The position numbers were made by a program, and so were the translations under genes. Below the pieces are notes generated by a model, which saw nothing but the letters and a program-made list of their open reading frames with translations, made no database searches and was not told the DNA's origin. Of a stretch of 31,986 nucleotides of DNA, positions 674 through 20,726 are shown piece after piece (the first letter of the stretch is position 1; each line of letters starts with the position of its first letter). Source of the stretch: a virus (taxonomy: Duplodnaviria; Caudoviricetes); the IMG/VR virus record IMGVR_UViG_3300006616_000044, positions 1-31,986 of that record. One strand, written 5' to 3'.

Positions 674-1529
674 AGAGGGTTATGGGCTTAAATATGTCCT
701 AGACTATAAAGACGGAAAAATCCCTAAAGGGTTGGGTATTGGTTGCGTATTAGACGATTATTTATTATTCAAACGTGGTCAAATGGTAGTAGTAAGCGGC
801 TTTCCTAATGTTGGAAAGACTTATTTTTTAATGTGGTATCTGCTTTGTCATGCTTTAATTAATGATTTAAAGTTTGTAATATGGTCAGGAGAAAACCCAC
901 CAGAACAACTTAAAATAAGTTTAATACAAATGCTAACTAATAACTGTTTAGAAGATTTAAAAGAAAGCGAAGTGAGAAAACTAATAGACAAAATAGATTA
1001 TTATTTCAAATTTGTTGATAATTCGAAACTTTATACTGCTTCAGACTTATTAAATATGTTTGCTAAGGAAGATGTTGCTGGTTGTTTAATTGACCCTTAT
1101 ACAGGATTAAACCACGAAAGAGGCGGGAAACTATCAATGTTTGATAAAAACTACAATTTCTGTAACAATATAAGAGAGTTCTGTAATAAGACTAATAAGA
1201 CTGTTTATGTTAATACTCACCCAATAAGTGAAGCAGCTAGACGAGTATATAAGCCAGGACACCCTTTAGAGGGCTATGTGATGCCAGCTAAGTCTAGTGA
1301 TATTGAGGGCGGAATGTCGTTTATAAATAGAACAGATGACTCTATAACACTTCACAGAATGTCAAACCACCCATTAATGTGGAATCAAACAGAAGTCCAC
1401 GTTCAAAAAGTAAAGAATCTAATGACTGGAGGAAAGATAACAAACCTAGACAGCCCTTTAAGATTTGATTTTAATTATGGAACTTATACAATCGGAGGAA
1501 TTAACCCACTAAAAAACATACAACTATGA
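660..1529 (+). CDS. DnaB-like (SF4) replicative helicase, no primase domain
   Basis: Walker A SGFPNVGKT, catalytic Glu in WSGEN, Walker B LIDPY, NTHP and QKVK motifs. Confidence 0.85.
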   Translation: MAILKEGYGLKYVLDYKDGKIPKGLGIGCVLDDYLLFKRGQMVVVSGFPNVGKTYFLMWYLLCHALINDLKFVIWSGENPPEQLKISLIQMLTNNCLEDLKESEVRKLIDKIDYYFKFVDNSKLYTASDLLNMFAKEDVAGCLIDPYTGLNHERGGKLSMFDKNYNFCNNIREFCNKTNKTVYVNTHPISEAARRVYKPGHPLEGYVMPAKSSDIEGGMSFINRTDDSITLHRMSNHPLMWNQTEVHVQKVKNLMTGGKITNLDSPLRFDFNYGTYTIGGINPLKNIQL

Positions 1530-1825
1530 ATGAATTAGACGTTATATTAAGAAGAAACAAGCTAGACATTATGATAATTAAGGCTTCTCATCAATTACAA
1601 AAAAGTAAAGACAAGACAAAACAAGAGGGACTAGATACTCTCATAGATATTATTAACTTGATTAGAGAGCTACAGGACGAGATTAGAGAGCAGTCTAGAA
1701 CAATAGCAAAGCTTAAGCTAGACAATGCGGTGTCTTATAAAGAAAACGCTATATTAAAAACAGACTTTGAAAAGTATAAAGACAGCTTAATCAAAGCAGA
1801 ATTAGAAACCCCTAAAAAGAAATAA
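1526..1825 (+). CDS. Hypothetical coiled-coil protein
   Basis: 99 aa with a heptad pattern; ATGA overlap with the helicase stop. Confidence 0.7.
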   Translation: MNELDVILRRNKLDIMIIKASHQLQKSKDKTKQEGLDTLIDIINLIRELQDEIREQSRTIAKLKLDNAVSYKENAILKTDFEKYKDSLIKAELETPKKK

Positions 1826-1969: not shown

Positions 1970-2089
1970 ATGAAAGATAAAATTATACACATTTTAGCCG
2001 CAGCTCTTGGAATTATACTTACTCCAATATGGTTGCCGATTACTTTAACCTTATATTTAGTTGACAAATGGCGAAAAAAAGGACAATGA
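1970..2089 (+). CDS. Small membrane protein (39 aa)
   Basis: Read manually: MKDKIIHILAAALGIILTPIWLPITLTLYLVDKWRKKGQ; A-rich leader. Confidence 0.6.
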   Translation: MKDKIIHILAAALGIILTPIWLPITLTLYLVDKWRKKGQ

Positions 2090-2229
2090 ATGAACTAAGA
2101 CAAACCAAAGACTCACACTATGAGCCGCCTTATATGCCAGTAGAGAATAGCTTAGCTTATTTATGTAGCGTCTACACTAATGACGCTGACTTAGGTGCTG
2201 TAATAAGAAAATACTTTCAGAAGCTATGA
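2068..2229 (+). CDS. Small hypothetical protein (53 aa)
   Basis: Read manually: MAKKRTMNELRQTKD...YTNDADLGAVIRKYFQKL; ATGA overlap with the methyltransferase start. Confidence 0.6.
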   Translation: MAKKRTMNELRQTKDSHYEPPYMPVENSLAYLCSVYTNDADLGAVIRKYFQKL

Positions 2230-5167: not shown

Positions 5168-5634
5168 CAAAAAAGCTGACACCTAAACAAAGAAAATTCG
5201 CAGAAGAGTATGTCAATACTGGCAACGCTTCAGAAGCTTATAGGAGAGCTTATGATGTTGGTGAAAATACTAGTCTAGACACTATAAAAGTAAACTCTAG
5301 TAAACTCTTAGCAGATACTAACATAAAACTAACAGTCAAGGAGTTACAGAAACTAGAAGCGGAAAGTTTTCAAATAACACGCAAGGAAGTAGCTGAGGGC
5401 TATTTTAAGATGATTAAATCTTGGGAGTATCTAATGGACCTAGCAGCAAAAGAAAACCTCTCTAAGGAGCAGAAAGCAAAATTCTATTTACTTAAAGAAA
5501 TGGTTAAAGGCTCAGACTATCGGGGAGCTTATGATTCAATAGCTAAGATGTTCGGACTCAATGCGCCAGACAAGCAAGAGATAGAACAGACTGTTCACAA
5601 TATAAACATCAACATTAAGCGTGGAAGCGACTGA
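5164..5634 (+). CDS. terS: Terminase small subunit
   Basis: LTPKQRKFAEEYVNTGNASEAYRRAY N-terminal HTH signature; directly upstream of terL. Confidence 0.9.
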   Translation: MTKKLTPKQRKFAEEYVNTGNASEAYRRAYDVGENTSLDTIKVNSSKLLADTNIKLTVKELQKLEAESFQITRKEVAEGYFKMIKSWEYLMDLAAKENLSKEQKAKFYLLKEMVKGSDYRGAYDSIAKMFGLNAPDKQEIEQTVHNININIKRGSD

Positions 5635-6799
5635 GATATTCGAGCGTAATTACGACAGCAATTTAAAGATAGTTATTAATAGAGGAGGGACTAGGAGTAG
5701 TAAGACTTGGTCCTTAAATCAATTATGCGCTTTATGGTTAATTAGTGGCAACTATGGAAATGAGCAATACTGTCATGAGGGTGTCTGGACTACTGTAAGA
5801 AAGTATAGAACCAATTTAGACGGAACAGTCATAAGAGACTTTGAGGACGTCTTAAAAGCTGAGGGATGGTATAATAGTATTGACCACAATAAGACTAAGA
5901 AGCAATATAGATACGGCAAAAGACTAGTAGAGTTTATAGGCGCAGACGATGAGCAGAAGCTTAGAGGAGCTAAAAGAAATATACTATACTGTAATGAGGC
6001 GAATGAATTAGAATATAAACAAGAGTTCTTTCAGTTGTTAATGAGAACAGAGAATAAGATATTCTTAGACTTCAACCCAGACGATGAACAGATTTGGATT
6101 AACCAGGAGTTAGAGATTAAGAGAGCTGCTGAGGTTGGAGATGTTGAGGTAATAGTAAGCAACTACAAGAACAATGCTTTCTTACCTAAATCACTAATAA
6201 AAGAAATAGAGTATTTACAAGAAACAGACAAAGAGTTCTGGAAGATATACGGTCTAGGAGAGTATGGTAACATTAGCGGCTTAGTGTATGAGAATGTAAA
6301 GTATGTGGACAGAATGCCAGACTGTAAGTTAGTAGCTTATGGCTTAGACTTTGGTTATAGTATAGACCCGTCAGCTTGTGTAGCAGTATATAGGAAAGAC
6401 GATGAATTGTATTTAAAAGAAATAATCTACGAGAGAGAGTTAACTAACCAAGACCTAGCGGAAAGACTAAAGCCAATAGTTAATAGGGATGAGGTTATCT
6501 GCGATAGTGCAGAACCTAAGAGTATTGAAGAAATATATAGACTAGGTTTAAACGCTAAACCAGCTACTAAAGGACGTGATAGTATTCTAAACGGTATAGA
6601 CATTCTAAAACGTTTTAAAATCAATGTTGTAAATAGTAGTAATTTAAGACGAGAGTTTAGGACTTATAAATGGGCAACAGACAAAAATGGGAACAGTCTA
6701 CAAAAGCCAATAGGACAAGACCACTTACTAGATGCTTTGCGCTATGTTGCGTTAATACATTTAAAAGAAAACAATCGTGGTTGGTATGCAATTAGATGA
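5621..6799 (+). CDS. terL: Terminase large subunit (PBSX-family-like)
   Basis: Walker A RGGTRSSKT, LYCNEANE, DFNP, and nuclease motifs GLDFG, CDSAEP and DHLLDALRY; GTG start. Confidence 0.95.
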   Translation: MEATEIFERNYDSNLKIVINRGGTRSSKTWSLNQLCALWLISGNYGNEQYCHEGVWTTVRKYRTNLDGTVIRDFEDVLKAEGWYNSIDHNKTKKQYRYGKRLVEFIGADDEQKLRGAKRNILYCNEANELEYKQEFFQLLMRTENKIFLDFNPDDEQIWINQELEIKRAAEVGDVEVIVSNYKNNAFLPKSLIKEIEYLQETDKEFWKIYGLGEYGNISGLVYENVKYVDRMPDCKLVAYGLDFGYSIDPSACVAVYRKDDELYLKEIIYERELTNQDLAERLKPIVNRDEVICDSAEPKSIEEIYRLGLNAKPATKGRDSILNGIDILKRFKINVVNSSNLRREFRTYKWATDKNGNSLQKPIGQDHLLDALRYVALIHLKENNRGWYAIR

Positions 6800-6844: not shown

Positions 6845-6903
6845 AAGCAATGCTTAAGCAATGCCCAAGCATTAAGATAAGAAAAGATAAGATAAGAAAA
6901 GAG
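6845..6903. repeat. Iteron-like 11-bp repeats followed by (AAGAW)n; candidate replication origin
   Basis: AAGCAATGCTT (6845, palindromic), AAGCAATGCCC (6856), AAGCATTAAGA (6867). Then AAGAT AAGAA AAGAT AAGAT AAGAA AAGAG (6874-6903). Confidence 0.6.
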
Positions 6904-6939: not shown

Positions 6940-7026
6940 TTAAAATATTAAAAGAGGCAGCCGAGTCTTAGACAGCGTAAGTCCTCAGAGCATTAAAGAG
7001 CCTGTCAATTGATGGGCTTTTTTTTT
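6940..7026 (+). ncRNA. Candidate small RNA 1 (~85 nt)
   Basis: Lies between the promoter and a terminator with no ORF. GC-richer core with a GAGG(6954)/CCTC(6983) closing stem. Confidence 0.45.
6995..7026 (+). terminator. Intrinsic terminator
   Basis: AGCCTGTC/GATGGGCT stem with G-U pairs, followed by a T9 tract. Confidence 0.8.
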
Positions 7027-7033
7027 GTTTAAG

Positions 7034-7088
7034 TTTTACGTGTGCCGCACGTGTGATACACGTGTATTTCACGTTTGTTTTACGTTTA
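7034..7088. repeat. Five degenerate 11-bp tandem units with an ACGT core
   Basis: TTTTACGTGTG, CCGCACGTGTG, ATACACGTGTA, TTTCACGTTTG, TTTTACGTTTA. ACGT at 7038, 7049, 7060, 7071 and 7082. Confidence 0.8.
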
Positions 7089-7115
7089 AGTAATTTTTTT
7101 TATTATCTTTACCAA

Positions 7116-7331
7116 ACAAATAAAAGAAGACTTCCACATTTTCTTTTTAAAAGTTTGGAGTGGTTTAGTAATCATGAATTTTTGATTTTCGCAAGGTTGT
7201 CTGCTGCAGGTTTCATAAGTCATTTTCTGAATACCAAGCTGCTCCTTTTTTTGATTTAATTAAAGGACATTATGATTAAGTTAAAAGCTAGGGAGGTAGT
7301 CGCCAAAAGAGGGTTGCCTCTCTTTTTTTTT
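7116..7331 (+). ncRNA. Candidate structured small RNA 2 (~215 nt; possibly a shorter form ending at 7252)
   Basis: A -7-like TATCTTTA at 7104-7111. Long stem 7157-7170/7232-7245 followed by T7. Terminator at 7290-7331. T-rich, unlike the coding DNA. Confidence 0.45.
7290..7331 (+). terminator. Intrinsic terminator
   Basis: AGGGAGGTAGTC / GGTTGCCTCTCT 12-bp stem with G-U pairs, 10-nt loop, T tract to 7331. Confidence 0.8.
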
Positions 7332-7366
7332 GAAATTAATTTAAAGTACTTTTGTTATTATTTAAA

Positions 7367-7381
7367 TATTTGTTATATATA
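7367..7381 (+). promoter_or_regulatory. Candidate late promoter TATTTGTTATATATA, copy 1
   Basis: The exact 15-mer is repeated at 16003-16017; both copies precede structural gene blocks. Confidence 0.6.
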
Positions 7382-7386
7382 GAAAT

Positions 7387-8031
7387 ATGAAGTTAACTAT
7401 ACCAACGGAATGGGAAGACATTACAATAGCTAAGTATATAGATTTAAGACCAGTTCTTAATTCTAAATTAAACCCTATAGAAAGAGTTATTAGCATCTTA
7501 GCTGTATTAACTGGAGAGAAGAAAGAAGTTATTAGAAATGTAAGCTTAGAGCAATACAAAGACATCAAAGAGAAGATGAGGTTTCTTGAAACCGAACTCC
7601 CTAAACAACTTGAAAAGAAACGCTTTGAAATAGGTGGCAAATTTTATGAGTTTAAGACTGACGCTAATAAGCTTTTATTTGGTGAGTATATTAACAACAT
7701 GGAGATTCTACAAAGTGCTAAAGATGACGAGGAGGCTGTATTTAATAATCTTCACCATATACTAACTACAATATGTAGACCAGTAGAAAAGAAGTTTCTT
7801 AGATGGAAAGAAATAGAGGTAGACGGAGAGCTGTTAAGAGAAACGGCTGACAACTTTTTACATAATATGCCAATTACAATAGCTTACCCAATAGGTGTTT
7901 TTTTTTACAATCACTTGGGCAACTTAACGGAAGATATAAAAACCTCTTTAGTGGAGGAAGCGGAGAGAAAAGTGAAGGAAGCGGAGAAGGAACTAGCTTC
8001 TCTGAAAGATGGGGATGGTGGTCAACCTTAG
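7387..8031 (+). CDS. Tail assembly chaperone (gpG-like)
   Basis: IPTEWEDITIAKY start; contains a T9 slippery run (GVFF) and a second frame that stays open downstream. Confidence 0.7.
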   Translation: MKLTIPTEWEDITIAKYIDLRPVLNSKLNPIERVISILAVLTGEKKEVIRNVSLEQYKDIKEKMRFLETELPKQLEKKRFEIGGKFYEFKTDANKLLFGEYINNMEILQSAKDDEEAVFNNLHHILTTICRPVEKKFLRWKEIEVDGELLRETADNFLHNMPITIAYPIGVFFYNHLGNLTEDIKTSLVEEAERKVKEAEKELASLKDGDGGQP

Positions 8032-8183
8032 ATAATCTTACTAATAGTCGTATAGACAAATGGGATGAGGTGCTGAATTGGGACGTTATAAAAGCTTTGA
8101 ATGTAGTAGCTTACTATAGTGATAAGCAAAAGATGGAATTAGAAATACATAAAAAACAAATGCAGCAAATGAAGCGAAGATAA
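7905..8183 (+). CDS. -1 frameshift extension of the tail chaperone (gpGT-like, ~265-aa fusion)
   Basis: T TTT TTT at 7899-7905. The -1 frame reads LQSLGQLNGRYKNLFSGG...FSERWGWWSTLDNL...KQMQQMKRR* and ends in TAATG coupled to the next gene. Confidence 0.75.
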   Translation, partial: LQSLGQLNGRYKNLFSGGSGEKSEGSGEGTSFSERWGWWSTLDNLTNSRIDKWDEVLNWDVIKALNVVAYYSDKQKMELEIHKKQMQQMKRR

Positions 8184-8752
8184 TGGCAGACCAATTAGAC
8201 ATATTTGGATTTGACGCTAGTCAATTAGAGGCTGTTAAAATAGATAAGCCTAAAAACGTTGCTGAGGTGTTTAATAACATTGCTGCTGACATGGTCTACT
8301 GTTTACAGCAATCAGTTAGAAAAGAAAAGTTAGTCTATCAAGGCAACCTTGAAAAGTCTATTAAAATGCCTGTTAAGTTATTTGGTCAAAAGATGGTTGC
8401 TACATTATACATGGCTGAATATTATGACTATGTCAATAAAGGGGTTAGAGGTATAGGCGGAAAGAAAAAGACTAAAGACGAATACTGGAACATTAAAGCT
8501 CCAGACAGTCCTTATCAATTTAAGAAAGGTCCTAGCGTTAGTCATATAAGACAATGGGCTAAAAGCAAAGGAATAAATGAATACATAGCTAGAAACTTTA
8601 TAGCTTATGAAGGAATTAGACCTAGACACTTTTTTGACAACTGTATGAAAGAGACTTTTTATGGTGAGGCATTTAACAAATTTAAGACAGACATAAGAAT
8701 AGTGGCGGGCGAGAAAGTAACAAAAGGATTAAAAGAAATAATTAAAAAATGA
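8183..8752 (+). CDS. Putative tail completion / neck protein (HK97 gp10-like)
   Basis: GNLEKSI...YYDYVNKGVRG...GIRPRHFF pattern; position within the tail block. Confidence 0.55.
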   Translation: MADQLDIFGFDASQLEAVKIDKPKNVAEVFNNIAADMVYCLQQSVRKEKLVYQGNLEKSIKMPVKLFGQKMVATLYMAEYYDYVNKGVRGIGGKKKTKDEYWNIKAPDSPYQFKKGPSVSHIRQWAKSKGINEYIARNFIAYEGIRPRHFFDNCMKETFYGEAFNKFKTDIRIVAGEKVTKGLKEIIKK

Positions 8753-15978: not shown

Positions 15979-16002
15979 CATTTAAATTGTGAAACTATCA
16001 AT

Positions 16003-16017
16003 TATTTGTTATATATA
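16003..16017 (+). promoter_or_regulatory. Candidate late promoter TATTTGTTATATATA, copy 2
   Basis: Identical to 7367-7381; ends 22 nt before the scaffold start codon. Confidence 0.6.
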
Positions 16018-16039
16018 ATAATGTAAAAAATTTTTTATT

Positions 16040-18870: not shown

Positions 18871-20726
18871 TGAGCGTAAAACTAATACCTATAAATTTTG
18901 GAGGCTATGAATTGCCAGAGTTTAAAGAATCTAAAAAAGGTGACTGGTATGAATACGGCACAGAGAGACCTTATAAAAATACTTATCCAGATTATTTGAC
19001 TAAGCTCTATAATGAGTCTAGTAAACATAATCAAATCATAAATAGCAAAGTTAAGTTTATAGTAGGACAAGGCTTTGTTGTAGATGAAAAACTAACATTC
19101 ACAGAAAAAGCTTATGTAGATGGCTTTTTAAGAATGCCTAACGAAGACGAGAACATAGATGAGCTTACATCTAAGCTAGCCAAAGACAAGAAAGTATACG
19201 GAGGGTTCAGTCTACAGGTTAGAATGTCTAAGGGCGGTAAAATTGCCGCAATAAATCACATAGACTTTTGTGATATAAGATGTGGAGTTGACAATGGTCT
19301 CTACTATTATACAGATGACTGGTCATCTAGAAGCCCACAAAATAACGAAGATTTTAAAATACTACAACACTTCCCTTATGATGACACCGCTAAGGCAGAT
19401 GTTGACTACATAATATACTACAAAGAATACAGACCAGACTTAGGTGTCTATCCGATGCCTGACTATACCTCAGCTATACCTTATTTAGAATCAGACGCTG
19501 AAATAGCAAACTTCACTTTACAAAACATTAAAAACAACCTCTCAGCGGGCTATGTTATTTCCTTTGCAAATGGTCAACCAACAGAGGAAGAAATGCACCA
19601 AATAGAGAGAAGATTTAAAGACTATGCTACTGGAGCTGATAACGCTGGCAAGCCTTTGTTGTCATTTACTGACCAGGCTAGTGACCACCCTCAAATATTA
19701 CCTATTCCAGTTAATGGACAAGATGAAAGATTCATAAATCTAAACAACCAAATTAGAGAAGAGATATTCACAGCTCATGGCATTACTAGCCCTCAATTAT
19801 TTGGAATTAAAGAAGCTGGTGGGACTGGCTTAGGGAATAACGCTGACGAGATAGTTGTAGCTTCTCAATTATACCAGAATCTACAAATAGACCCAGAGCA
19901 AAAAGTATTTGACGAGCTTATTAACTCAATACTTAATTTTAATGGCGTTTCTGGTCAGCCTGTAAGACTACAGAAAATTGAACCAGTTCAAAGATATTTT
20001 AGCGAGTCAGCTATTATAGCTGTAATGACTCAAGACGAGATTAGGGAGAAAATAGGTCTACCAGCACTACAACCAGAGCAAAGAGTAGAGCTTAAAAGTG
20101 ATGAAGATGACATTATCTTCTCACAATTAGAGACTACTGGACTAGATGCTAACAGCTTAGAGGTGTTAAAAACGTATCAAAACCCTATAACATCTTTAAA
20201 AGACGCTAAAGAATACGAAGAAATAATTAAAAAAGAGTCCTTTTCTCTTACTGAAACGCTTTCAGAGTTAGAAAAAGAAGTGTTATCTTTATTAATTAAG
20301 AATCCTAATTTACCTTTAACTGAATTAGCTGACGCTTTACAAGTTCCACAGGCTCAAGTAAGTGAGGCAGTTAGCAACTTAGTAGACGCTGAGGCTCTAG
20401 ACAAGAATTTTAAGCCAACACCATCGGCAGAAGAAAGCATTCAAAAGCCAATAGAAGAGATATTTGTTGTATATAGATACATTGAAAGACCAGACGCTCC
20501 ACCGTTGAAGACAGAAAGTAGACCATTTTGTAGAAAAATGATGTTATTATCTACTACTAGAAGATACACTCTACAACAGTTAGAGCTATTGACTAATGAC
20601 TTTGGACAGACTGGAATAGATATTTTTACAAAAAGAGGAGGATGGTATCACAACTATAAAACAAATAAAACAACTCCATTTTGTAGACACATCTGGCAAC
20701 AGGAAATAGTAAGATTAAAAAAGTAA
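18870..20726 (+). CDS. Portal protein with C-terminal HTH-like and MuF/minor-head-like extension
   Basis: Portal-like core (YPMPDY, GADNAGK, IFTAHGITSPQLFGI, MTQDEIREKIGL). Then LTELADAL and SRPFC...PFCRHIW. Confidence 0.8.
   Translation: MSVKLIPINFGGYELPEFKESKKGDWYEYGTERPYKNTYPDYLTKLYNESSKHNQIINSKVKFIVGQGFVVDEKLTFTEKAYVDGFLRMPNEDENIDELTSKLAKDKKVYGGFSLQVRMSKGGKIAAINHIDFCDIRCGVDNGLYYYTDDWSSRSPQNNEDFKILQHFPYDDTAKADVDYIIYYKEYRPDLGVYPMPDYTSAIPYLESDAEIANFTLQNIKNNLSAGYVISFANGQPTEEEMHQIERRFKDYATGADNAGKPLLSFTDQASDHPQILPIPVNGQDERFINLNNQIREEIFTAHGITSPQLFGIKEAGGTGLGNNADEIVVASQLYQNLQIDPEQKVFDELINSILNFNGVSGQPVRLQKIEPVQRYFSESAIIAVMTQDEIREKIGLPALQPEQRVELKSDEDDIIFSQLETTGLDANSLEVLKTYQNPITSLKDAKEYEEIIKKESFSLTETLSELEKEVLSLLIKNPNLPLTELADALQVPQAQVSEAVSNLVDAEALDKNFKPTPSAEESIQKPIEEIFVVYRYIERPDAPPLKTESRPFCRKMMLLSTTRRYTLQQLELLTNDFGQTGIDIFTKRGGWYHNYKTNKTTPFCRHIWQQEIVRLKK

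Follow-up and report, generated by a model that had tools for sequence, protein, structure and literature searches.

The window, by which we mean the whole stretch of DNA analyzed, is a 31,986-nt tailed-phage record (~32 kb) in which terminase, portal, and tape-measure genes were recognized. Among the proteins scanned, no integrase, repressor, or antirepressor was recognized, nor was any Cas-like or known RNA-binding protein. No annotated phage matched the window at the DNA level, and terminase identity to annotated phages did not exceed 37%; relatives of the terminase stood at 45% in Flavobacteriales-order genomes and at ~35% in Bacteroides and Parabacteroides phages. From these relatives and the promoter box listed in Table 1, we infer that the host belongs to the Bacteroidota, probably to the Flavobacteriales. 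To our knowledge, Bacteroidota have no Hfq and no Shine-Dalgarno-led initiation. A section of PMC9723704 notes the absence of Shine-Dalgarno sites in Bacteroidota and places the −7 box of their sigma-A promoters at −12 to −5.

The flagged segment, 7104–7331, sits in a gene-free stretch between terL and a late gene. As the earlier note had described it, the segment is T-rich (39%; 89/228) and ends in a terminator. The structured unit upstream of it, at 6950–7026, has no Rfam match and is shared by at least 10 relatives, in one of which the closing stem has changed in a compensatory manner; its terminator is predicted to insulate the flagged unit from terL read-through. The repeats at 6845–6902 persist in a sister clade that does not have the RNA. 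Nested short palindromes at 7038–7075, common to L006 and L376, lie just upstream of the promoter and may be an operator. A motif at 7364–7391 is repeated at 16000–16027 and 20458–20485 ahead of late genes and is probably a late promoter; it is conserved before the homologue of gene 7387 in relatives. Near the end of gene 7387, a nine-T run (7898–7906), also conserved in relatives, is a probable frameshift site. In relatives, the post-terL locus is also a site of acquisition for methyltransferases and small ORFs, and more short promoter-to-terminator noncoding units are stacked after terL (L020, 3680–3740; L042; L049; L074; L200; L093, 1400–1750).

Table 1. Features of the flagged unit, its surroundings, and candidate target genes in the window
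Feature	Position	Strand	Basis or remark
Early gene after helicase; weak candidate target in relatives	1526–1825	+	Start-region pairing
53-aa early gene; weak candidate target or partner	2068–2229	+	Co-occurs with the RNA
Terminase large subunit (terL), upstream flank; GUG start a weak candidate target	5621–6799	+	Loop 1 mirror
Short palindromic repeats and purine-rich run, origin-like	6845–6902		Conserved also in sister clade
Upstream structured unit with own terminator	6950–7026	+	Conserved in relatives
−7 box TATCTTTA, Bacteroidota sigma-A type	7104–7111	+	Letters; identical in L376
Transcription start, predicted	~7116	+	From −7 box position
Hairpin 1, 9 bp, exposed loop 7131–7138 with CAU 7137	7122–7147	+	Fold
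Single-stranded linker, GUUUGG element at its end	7148–7156	+	Fold; version of recurrent GUUUU(G/A)G
Hairpin 2, terminator-like stem, 70-nt imperfectly paired insert, U7 tail	7157–7252	+	Fold; closes first (A-type) unit
Hairpin 3, 15 bp, CAU 7268 in loop	7248–7287	+	Fold; 5′ part of second (B-type) unit
Conserved 3′ domain: 10-bp covarying terminator stem, U tail	7290–7331	+	Alignment of relatives
Near-invariant inner motif (15 nt)	7299–7313	+	Window variant: compensatory C-G for G-C pair
Downstream late gene	7387–8031	+	Own conserved promoter-like motif at 7364–7381
Late gene, HK97 gp10-like lead only; weak candidate target	8183–8752	+	Start mirrored by 7184–7212

Predicted fold of the segment

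The segment folds as four hairpins (z = −2.45; 2/200 shuffles). The earlier note had read it as a candidate antisense RNA assembled from reverse-complemented translation starts, each a CAT followed by a T-rich run. The five CATs do lie at 7137, 7173, 7214, 7221, and 7268, and the four reverse complements given for them are present in the sequence. Against these five, dinucleotide shuffles gave an expectation of 2.7 (P = 0.09) and mononucleotide shuffles one of 3.6 (P = 0.29), in agreement with the note's own caveat that five CATs are not significant by themselves. The T-rich runs are likewise present, but they are largely the 3′ arms of the RNA's own hairpins. In the single-sequence fold, CAU 7173 and CAU 7221 are predicted to be paired, and 7137, 7214, and 7268 to be mostly exposed.

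Loop 1, exposed by hairpin 1, is a 7-nt exact mirror of the terL GUG start, and the hairpin has look-alikes in L200 and L049. Hairpin 2 holds CAU 7173, 7214, and 7221; short versions of it occur in L049 and L200, it is absent from the closest relative, L376, and its insert was not found in relatives. Hairpin 3, which has no promoter of its own in the window, resembles the 5′ parts of L012 and L014 and is kept in L376, where its stem shows a wobble-to-Watson-Crick change. In the conserved 3′ domain, the two differences of the window's loop amount to one G-C pair swapped for a C-G pair.

Conservation in related phages

Relatives were fetched via the two flanking proteins, which yielded 96 loci, some from the same contigs, and with the window 97 sequences. 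The 15-nt motif of the terminal hairpin (≤2 mismatches) was present in 81 of the 97. It occurred in 64 of 67 loci with a terminase 88 to 95% identical, in none of the 13 loci at 79 to 82% identity, and was again present in phages with a terminase 27% identical; two near-complete sister-clade genomes were searched and the element was not found. A pattern scan added further units, for a total of 65 distinct units of ~55 to 110 nt besides the window's 215 nt, and each of 25 records carried one strong copy. G413 and G424-G426 combine the same RNA and neighborhood with the terminase that is only 27% identical, which suggests terminase replacement.

Of 70 distinct units, 69 have a strict −7 box at a distance of 18 to 100 nt upstream, compared to 3% of random windows; the one exception is the window's own unit, whose −7 box is 187 nt upstream. 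In the 3′ stem, 95% of cells are paired, and two-sided changes were seen in 10 of 12 pairs. The covariation score was 0.57, versus 0.24 for shuffled and ≤0.20 for slid pairings, in a test on 27 units that we chose from the 65 and whose lineages are related, not independent.

Could the locus instead encode a small peptide? Candidate frames exist on the plus strand (7272–7382 or 7053–7259) and on the minus strand, where the earlier note had correctly recorded a 45-codon ORF (7223–7086), and L376 likewise keeps the 7272 frame open. Nonetheless, an in-frame ATG is found in only 12 of the 70 units, third codon positions are invariant with paired changes in the stem, the minus-strand ORF is not conserved and is lost in L376, and the two ORFs scanned have no PHROG match. 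We therefore consider a peptide gene scarcely credible. Another reading is a regulated terminator or insulator: an anti-termination or processing factor would bind its loop, and the short transcript would be a by-product. This would agree with the nature of the conserved part, an intrinsic terminator, and with its place between terL and the late genes. It would not account for the dedicated promoter box of nearly every unit, with many units placed directly behind another terminator, nor for the promoter-like motif that the downstream gene has of its own; moreover, the position of the element relative to the repeat island varies. Such a role on its own is thus very unlikely.

Judged by its letters, the element is predicted to be a stand-alone, sRNA-like unit after the terminase gene, composed of a promoter box, variable 5′ hairpins, and a near-invariant 3′ loop. 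Like an sRNA gene, it is intergenic and has a predicted promoter and an intrinsic terminator of its own, and its noncoding structure is supported by covariation for the 3′ hairpin. The coordinates in the earlier note mark a real element, but not on the grounds given there; what exceeds chance, and had been missed, is the conserved covarying 3′ hairpin together with the promoter-to-terminator architecture common to relatives.

Modularity of the 5′ part

The 5′ parts of the units fall into 20 groups at 80% identity. L376, a single match from a metagenome scan, shares with the window the flanks, the promoter, and the 80 nt at the 3′ end, and under this promoter a different 35-nt hairpin replaces the window's first 135 nt; 7268 is the only CAT module retained. 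Viral scans returned 0 matches for the window's loop variant and 0 for the A-type pattern. Comparison with relatives suggests that the flagged segment consists of two tandem units, 7116–7252 and then 7248–7331. The first resembles the short units found upstream in L049 and L200, plus the 70-nt insert in its terminator loop, and the second is without the promoter that L049 and L200 have between the two units. Some members of the family have only 16 to 25 nt ahead of the conserved loop.

Two short signals recur in the 5′ parts: the linker GTTTT[GA]G in 8 of 19 lineages (0.17 expected) and TTT[GA]G in 12 of 19 (3.1 expected). RNAalifold found no consensus pairs in two 5′ groups (12 and 10 sequences), so the 5′ hairpins rest on single-sequence folds. 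We also considered a recurrent AG(C/U)CAA loop directed at UUGGYUA (tRNA D-loop, UUG starts, terS leader) and rejected it, as no consistent site emerged. CAT was not enriched across relatives (9 versus 9.8) and was present in 8 of 19 lineages. Hence, of the pattern that the earlier note had proposed to look for in relatives, a conserved scaffold with variable 5′ modules was recovered, but variable CAT modules were not.

Tests of host targets

Host pairing was evaluated on ~1.9 Mb of Flavobacteriales DNA, consisting of G077 (~1.58 of 1.7 Mb) and 18 pieces of other genomes, with 1,330 starts from rough self-trained gene calls that are surrogates and not those of the true host. If the modules were reverse-complemented host starts, they should pair there better than shuffles; 1 of 19 CAT modules did so (7214, P = 0.02), and none of the 19 had an unusually good best match at surrogate starts. 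For 20 domains, 9-mer complements showed no enrichment, either at starts (pooled P = 0.21) or in start regions (P = 0.33). In the BLAST-type check suggested by the earlier note, 14 of the 15 top matches of 7150–7250 in 401 Flavobacteriales-order genomes were antisense to an ORF, with matches overall at chance level. One match that recurred, to the mnmA 3′ end, was rejected because it scores at the shuffled rate.

The antisense model of the earlier note, with modules on starts of the host or of competing elements, such as defense or receptor genes, gains from several observations: the 5′ modules turn over and swap fast among phages with 88 to 95% identical terminases, the host-type promoter box would imply early expression, the locus is a hotspot for accessory units, and three CAU are predicted to be exposed. 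Set against these are the lack of CAT enrichment and the absence of start enrichment in the surrogate DNA, along with the chance-level matches in the 401 genomes. Because surrogate genomes stood in for the host, these tests weaken host targeting with limited power, and we regard this model as rather improbable.

Tests of targets among the phage's own genes

The earlier note had also stated that there was no match to the phage's own gene starts. This was too strong, as short mirrors occur at the starts of terL, 4871, 8183, and 2068, although it holds in that they are not significant. With gene starts taken from our own rough calls, own leaders gave 63 matches versus 42 at 9 nt (P = 0.007), and the window RNA matched 20 of 45 own leaders versus 9.4, both relative to mononucleotide shuffles and both largely U-runs. 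Three early leaders contain a 9-nt motif that is mirrored by the G410 RNA. A reading in terms of own targets is weakened by the ease with which AU-rich sequences mirror A-rich leaders. The window RNA performed no better than shuffles on its own 45 starts (P = 0.15 to 0.19) and paired better with internal ATG sites than with own starts. CAU-anchored pairing of 16 modules at the phages' own starts was null (combined P = 0.32), and no long self-complement of the RNA was found.

Four genes were individually of interest. The start of gene 1526 was the best of 30 families (18 genomes), beyond all 40 null minima, and lineage-matched mirrors of it were seen in G404, G406, G411, the G416-group, and L135. 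In 14 held-out pairs, with repeats of the discovery lineages left out, the mean z computed by hand was ~−0.5; a dinucleotide-shuffle version on 15 lineages gave a three-way tie between families and a family-wise P of ~0.07. The start of gene 2068 ranked first in two lineages (permutation P = 0.03). This gene, whose 53-aa protein is conserved and has no Pfam family, is found in RNA-bearing genomes covering the region and was not found in three sister-clade records, a co-occurrence that amounts to a single loss event. For terL, loop 1 of the window ranked the start 1/45; as a target, terL reached nominal significance in one model, gave a null result in another, and had no family-wide support. 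Segment 7184–7212 ranked the start of gene 8183 1/45 (P = 0.047 after choosing the segment), with no own-versus-other preference (P = 0.46). As a universal target, none of the terL, terS, 8183, 1526, and 2068 starts passes correction. Several test designs were tried, so nominal P values of 0.01 to 0.05 are weak and expected partly by chance.

The 3′ loop and its possible partner

The 15-nt loop is kept near letter for letter across terminases 95% to 27% identical, which points to a specific RNA-binding partner. A model of the 3′ hairpin scored 58 to 70 bits on members; in 151 genomes of the order, no score exceeded 33, the 13 best-looking matches were plain terminators, and no host copy was found. 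In 12 of the 64 parts of the bacterial genome collection, the motif was matched exactly 120 times, never in the family context. Likenesses of the loop to the tRNA D-loop, boxB, kink-turn, Y RNA, and CRISPR repeats were unconvincing.

These data bear on the main rival explanation, a protein decoy or sponge in which the invariant 3′ loop titrates a host RNA-binding protein (a chaperone, nuclease, or defense sensor) and the drifting 5′ hairpins merely stabilize the RNA. Nothing but the loop is near-invariant, and a compensatory pair change lies inside it; the shortest members have little else. It is kept across unrelated terminase types and lost in the sister clade, as would be expected of a host-specific partner, and no pairing target passes correction. 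On the other hand, the searches just described yielded no host RNA with the loop that could be mimicked, and each RNA offers one site, whereas sponges are typically multi-site. Furthermore, the second recurrent element and C-rich 5′ loops suggest that the 5′ part is also under selection. A decoy is therefore possible but, in our estimate, unlikely.

Comparison with known RNAs

The c4 RNA and the P4 CI RNA are short phage RNAs with hairpins that act in trans on own transcripts through lineage-specific pairing segments. According to PMC2864571, the c4 antisense RNA of P1/P7 is Rfam RF01695. The present unit differs in that its inferred host belongs to another phylum and it has no RF01695 match; co-variation of own target sites of the c4 type reached nominal P values of 0.03 to 0.05 for genes 1526 and 2068 (family-wise ~0.07) and was null for 8183. 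More generally, neither the window nor its relatives matched Rfam (gathering threshold; E up to 0.05–5). In the ColE1/CopA type, the RNA is encoded opposite a primer or rep leader beside an origin, in an arrangement that does not vary; here, the unit is on the same strand as the genes, and the side of the repeat island on which it lies, upstream or downstream, differs among relatives.

The FopS and GibS sRNAs of Bacteroides thetaiotaomicron, as presented in parts of PMC11697453, pair with translation initiation regions with the help of RbpB. Like the phage unit, they have a Bacteroidota sigma-A promoter and a 5′ part followed by an intrinsic terminator. In contrast, FopS is host encoded and multicopy with a conserved 5′ seed, while the phage unit is single copy with a conserved 3′ loop and a variable 5′ part; it matches neither the Rfam model nor the conserved 5′ R1 seed, and no multicopy occurrence in a host genome was seen. 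PreS (lambda) and VpdS (VP882) are phage intergenic sRNAs that act on host or phage mRNAs or compete for a chaperone; they depend on Hfq, and the sections of the review PMC12197685 that treat them describe no family with swappable modules. Flavo-1 (RF01705) is an orphan structured RNA of Flavobacteria, and 3′-terminator motifs are given in Weinberg 2017 (PMC5737381); several of these RNAs end in terminators. The phage unit resembles them in being an orphan structured RNA that ends in a terminator, and it has no RF01705 match. By the tests run, the element is not FopS, c4, or Flavo-1 but a predicted phage sRNA of undescribed form. We found no published account of such a family, motif letters included; it may sit unnamed in the viral structured-RNA catalogue PMC10690425.

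Discussion

Alongside the observed architecture, covarying stem, invariant loop, module swapping, and single copy per genome, the reading we favor, with a probability of roughly 40%, is that of a trans-acting sRNA whose 3′ handle binds a protein and whose pairing modules can be exchanged. Phage start regions would be likelier partners than host ones, and the genes named above are candidate targets only. This preserves part of the earlier proposal of one phage RNA with guide-like modules, namely, a predicted plus-strand noncoding unit with a scaffold and variable modules, and drops the idea that the modules are start-codon complements. Start-region pairing has a Bacteroidota precedent in GibS and FopS, as described in PMC11697453.

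Under this trans-acting sRNA reading, host polymerase would transcribe the unit early into a small RNA, as its promoter-to-terminator layout suggests. The invariant 3′ loop may then bind a protein that stabilizes or presents the RNA, and the weak AU-rich hairpins and the GUUUU(G/A)G linker could open on contact with A-rich start regions. Pairing near gene starts would damp translation, and this might feed back on early genes after a delay or hold back late genes and premature packaging. A more elaborate scheme would be a modular guide-RNA system, in which the loop loads the RNA on a host or phage protein and modules are exchanged or stacked to retarget it; the window would then be a multiplexed form with three exposed loops, each directed to a different gene start. 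We consider this a long shot.

Small RNAs of Bacteroidota-infecting phages are nearly unstudied. A scaffold whose front modules are swapped naturally is also a possible template for synthetic sRNAs in Flavobacteria.
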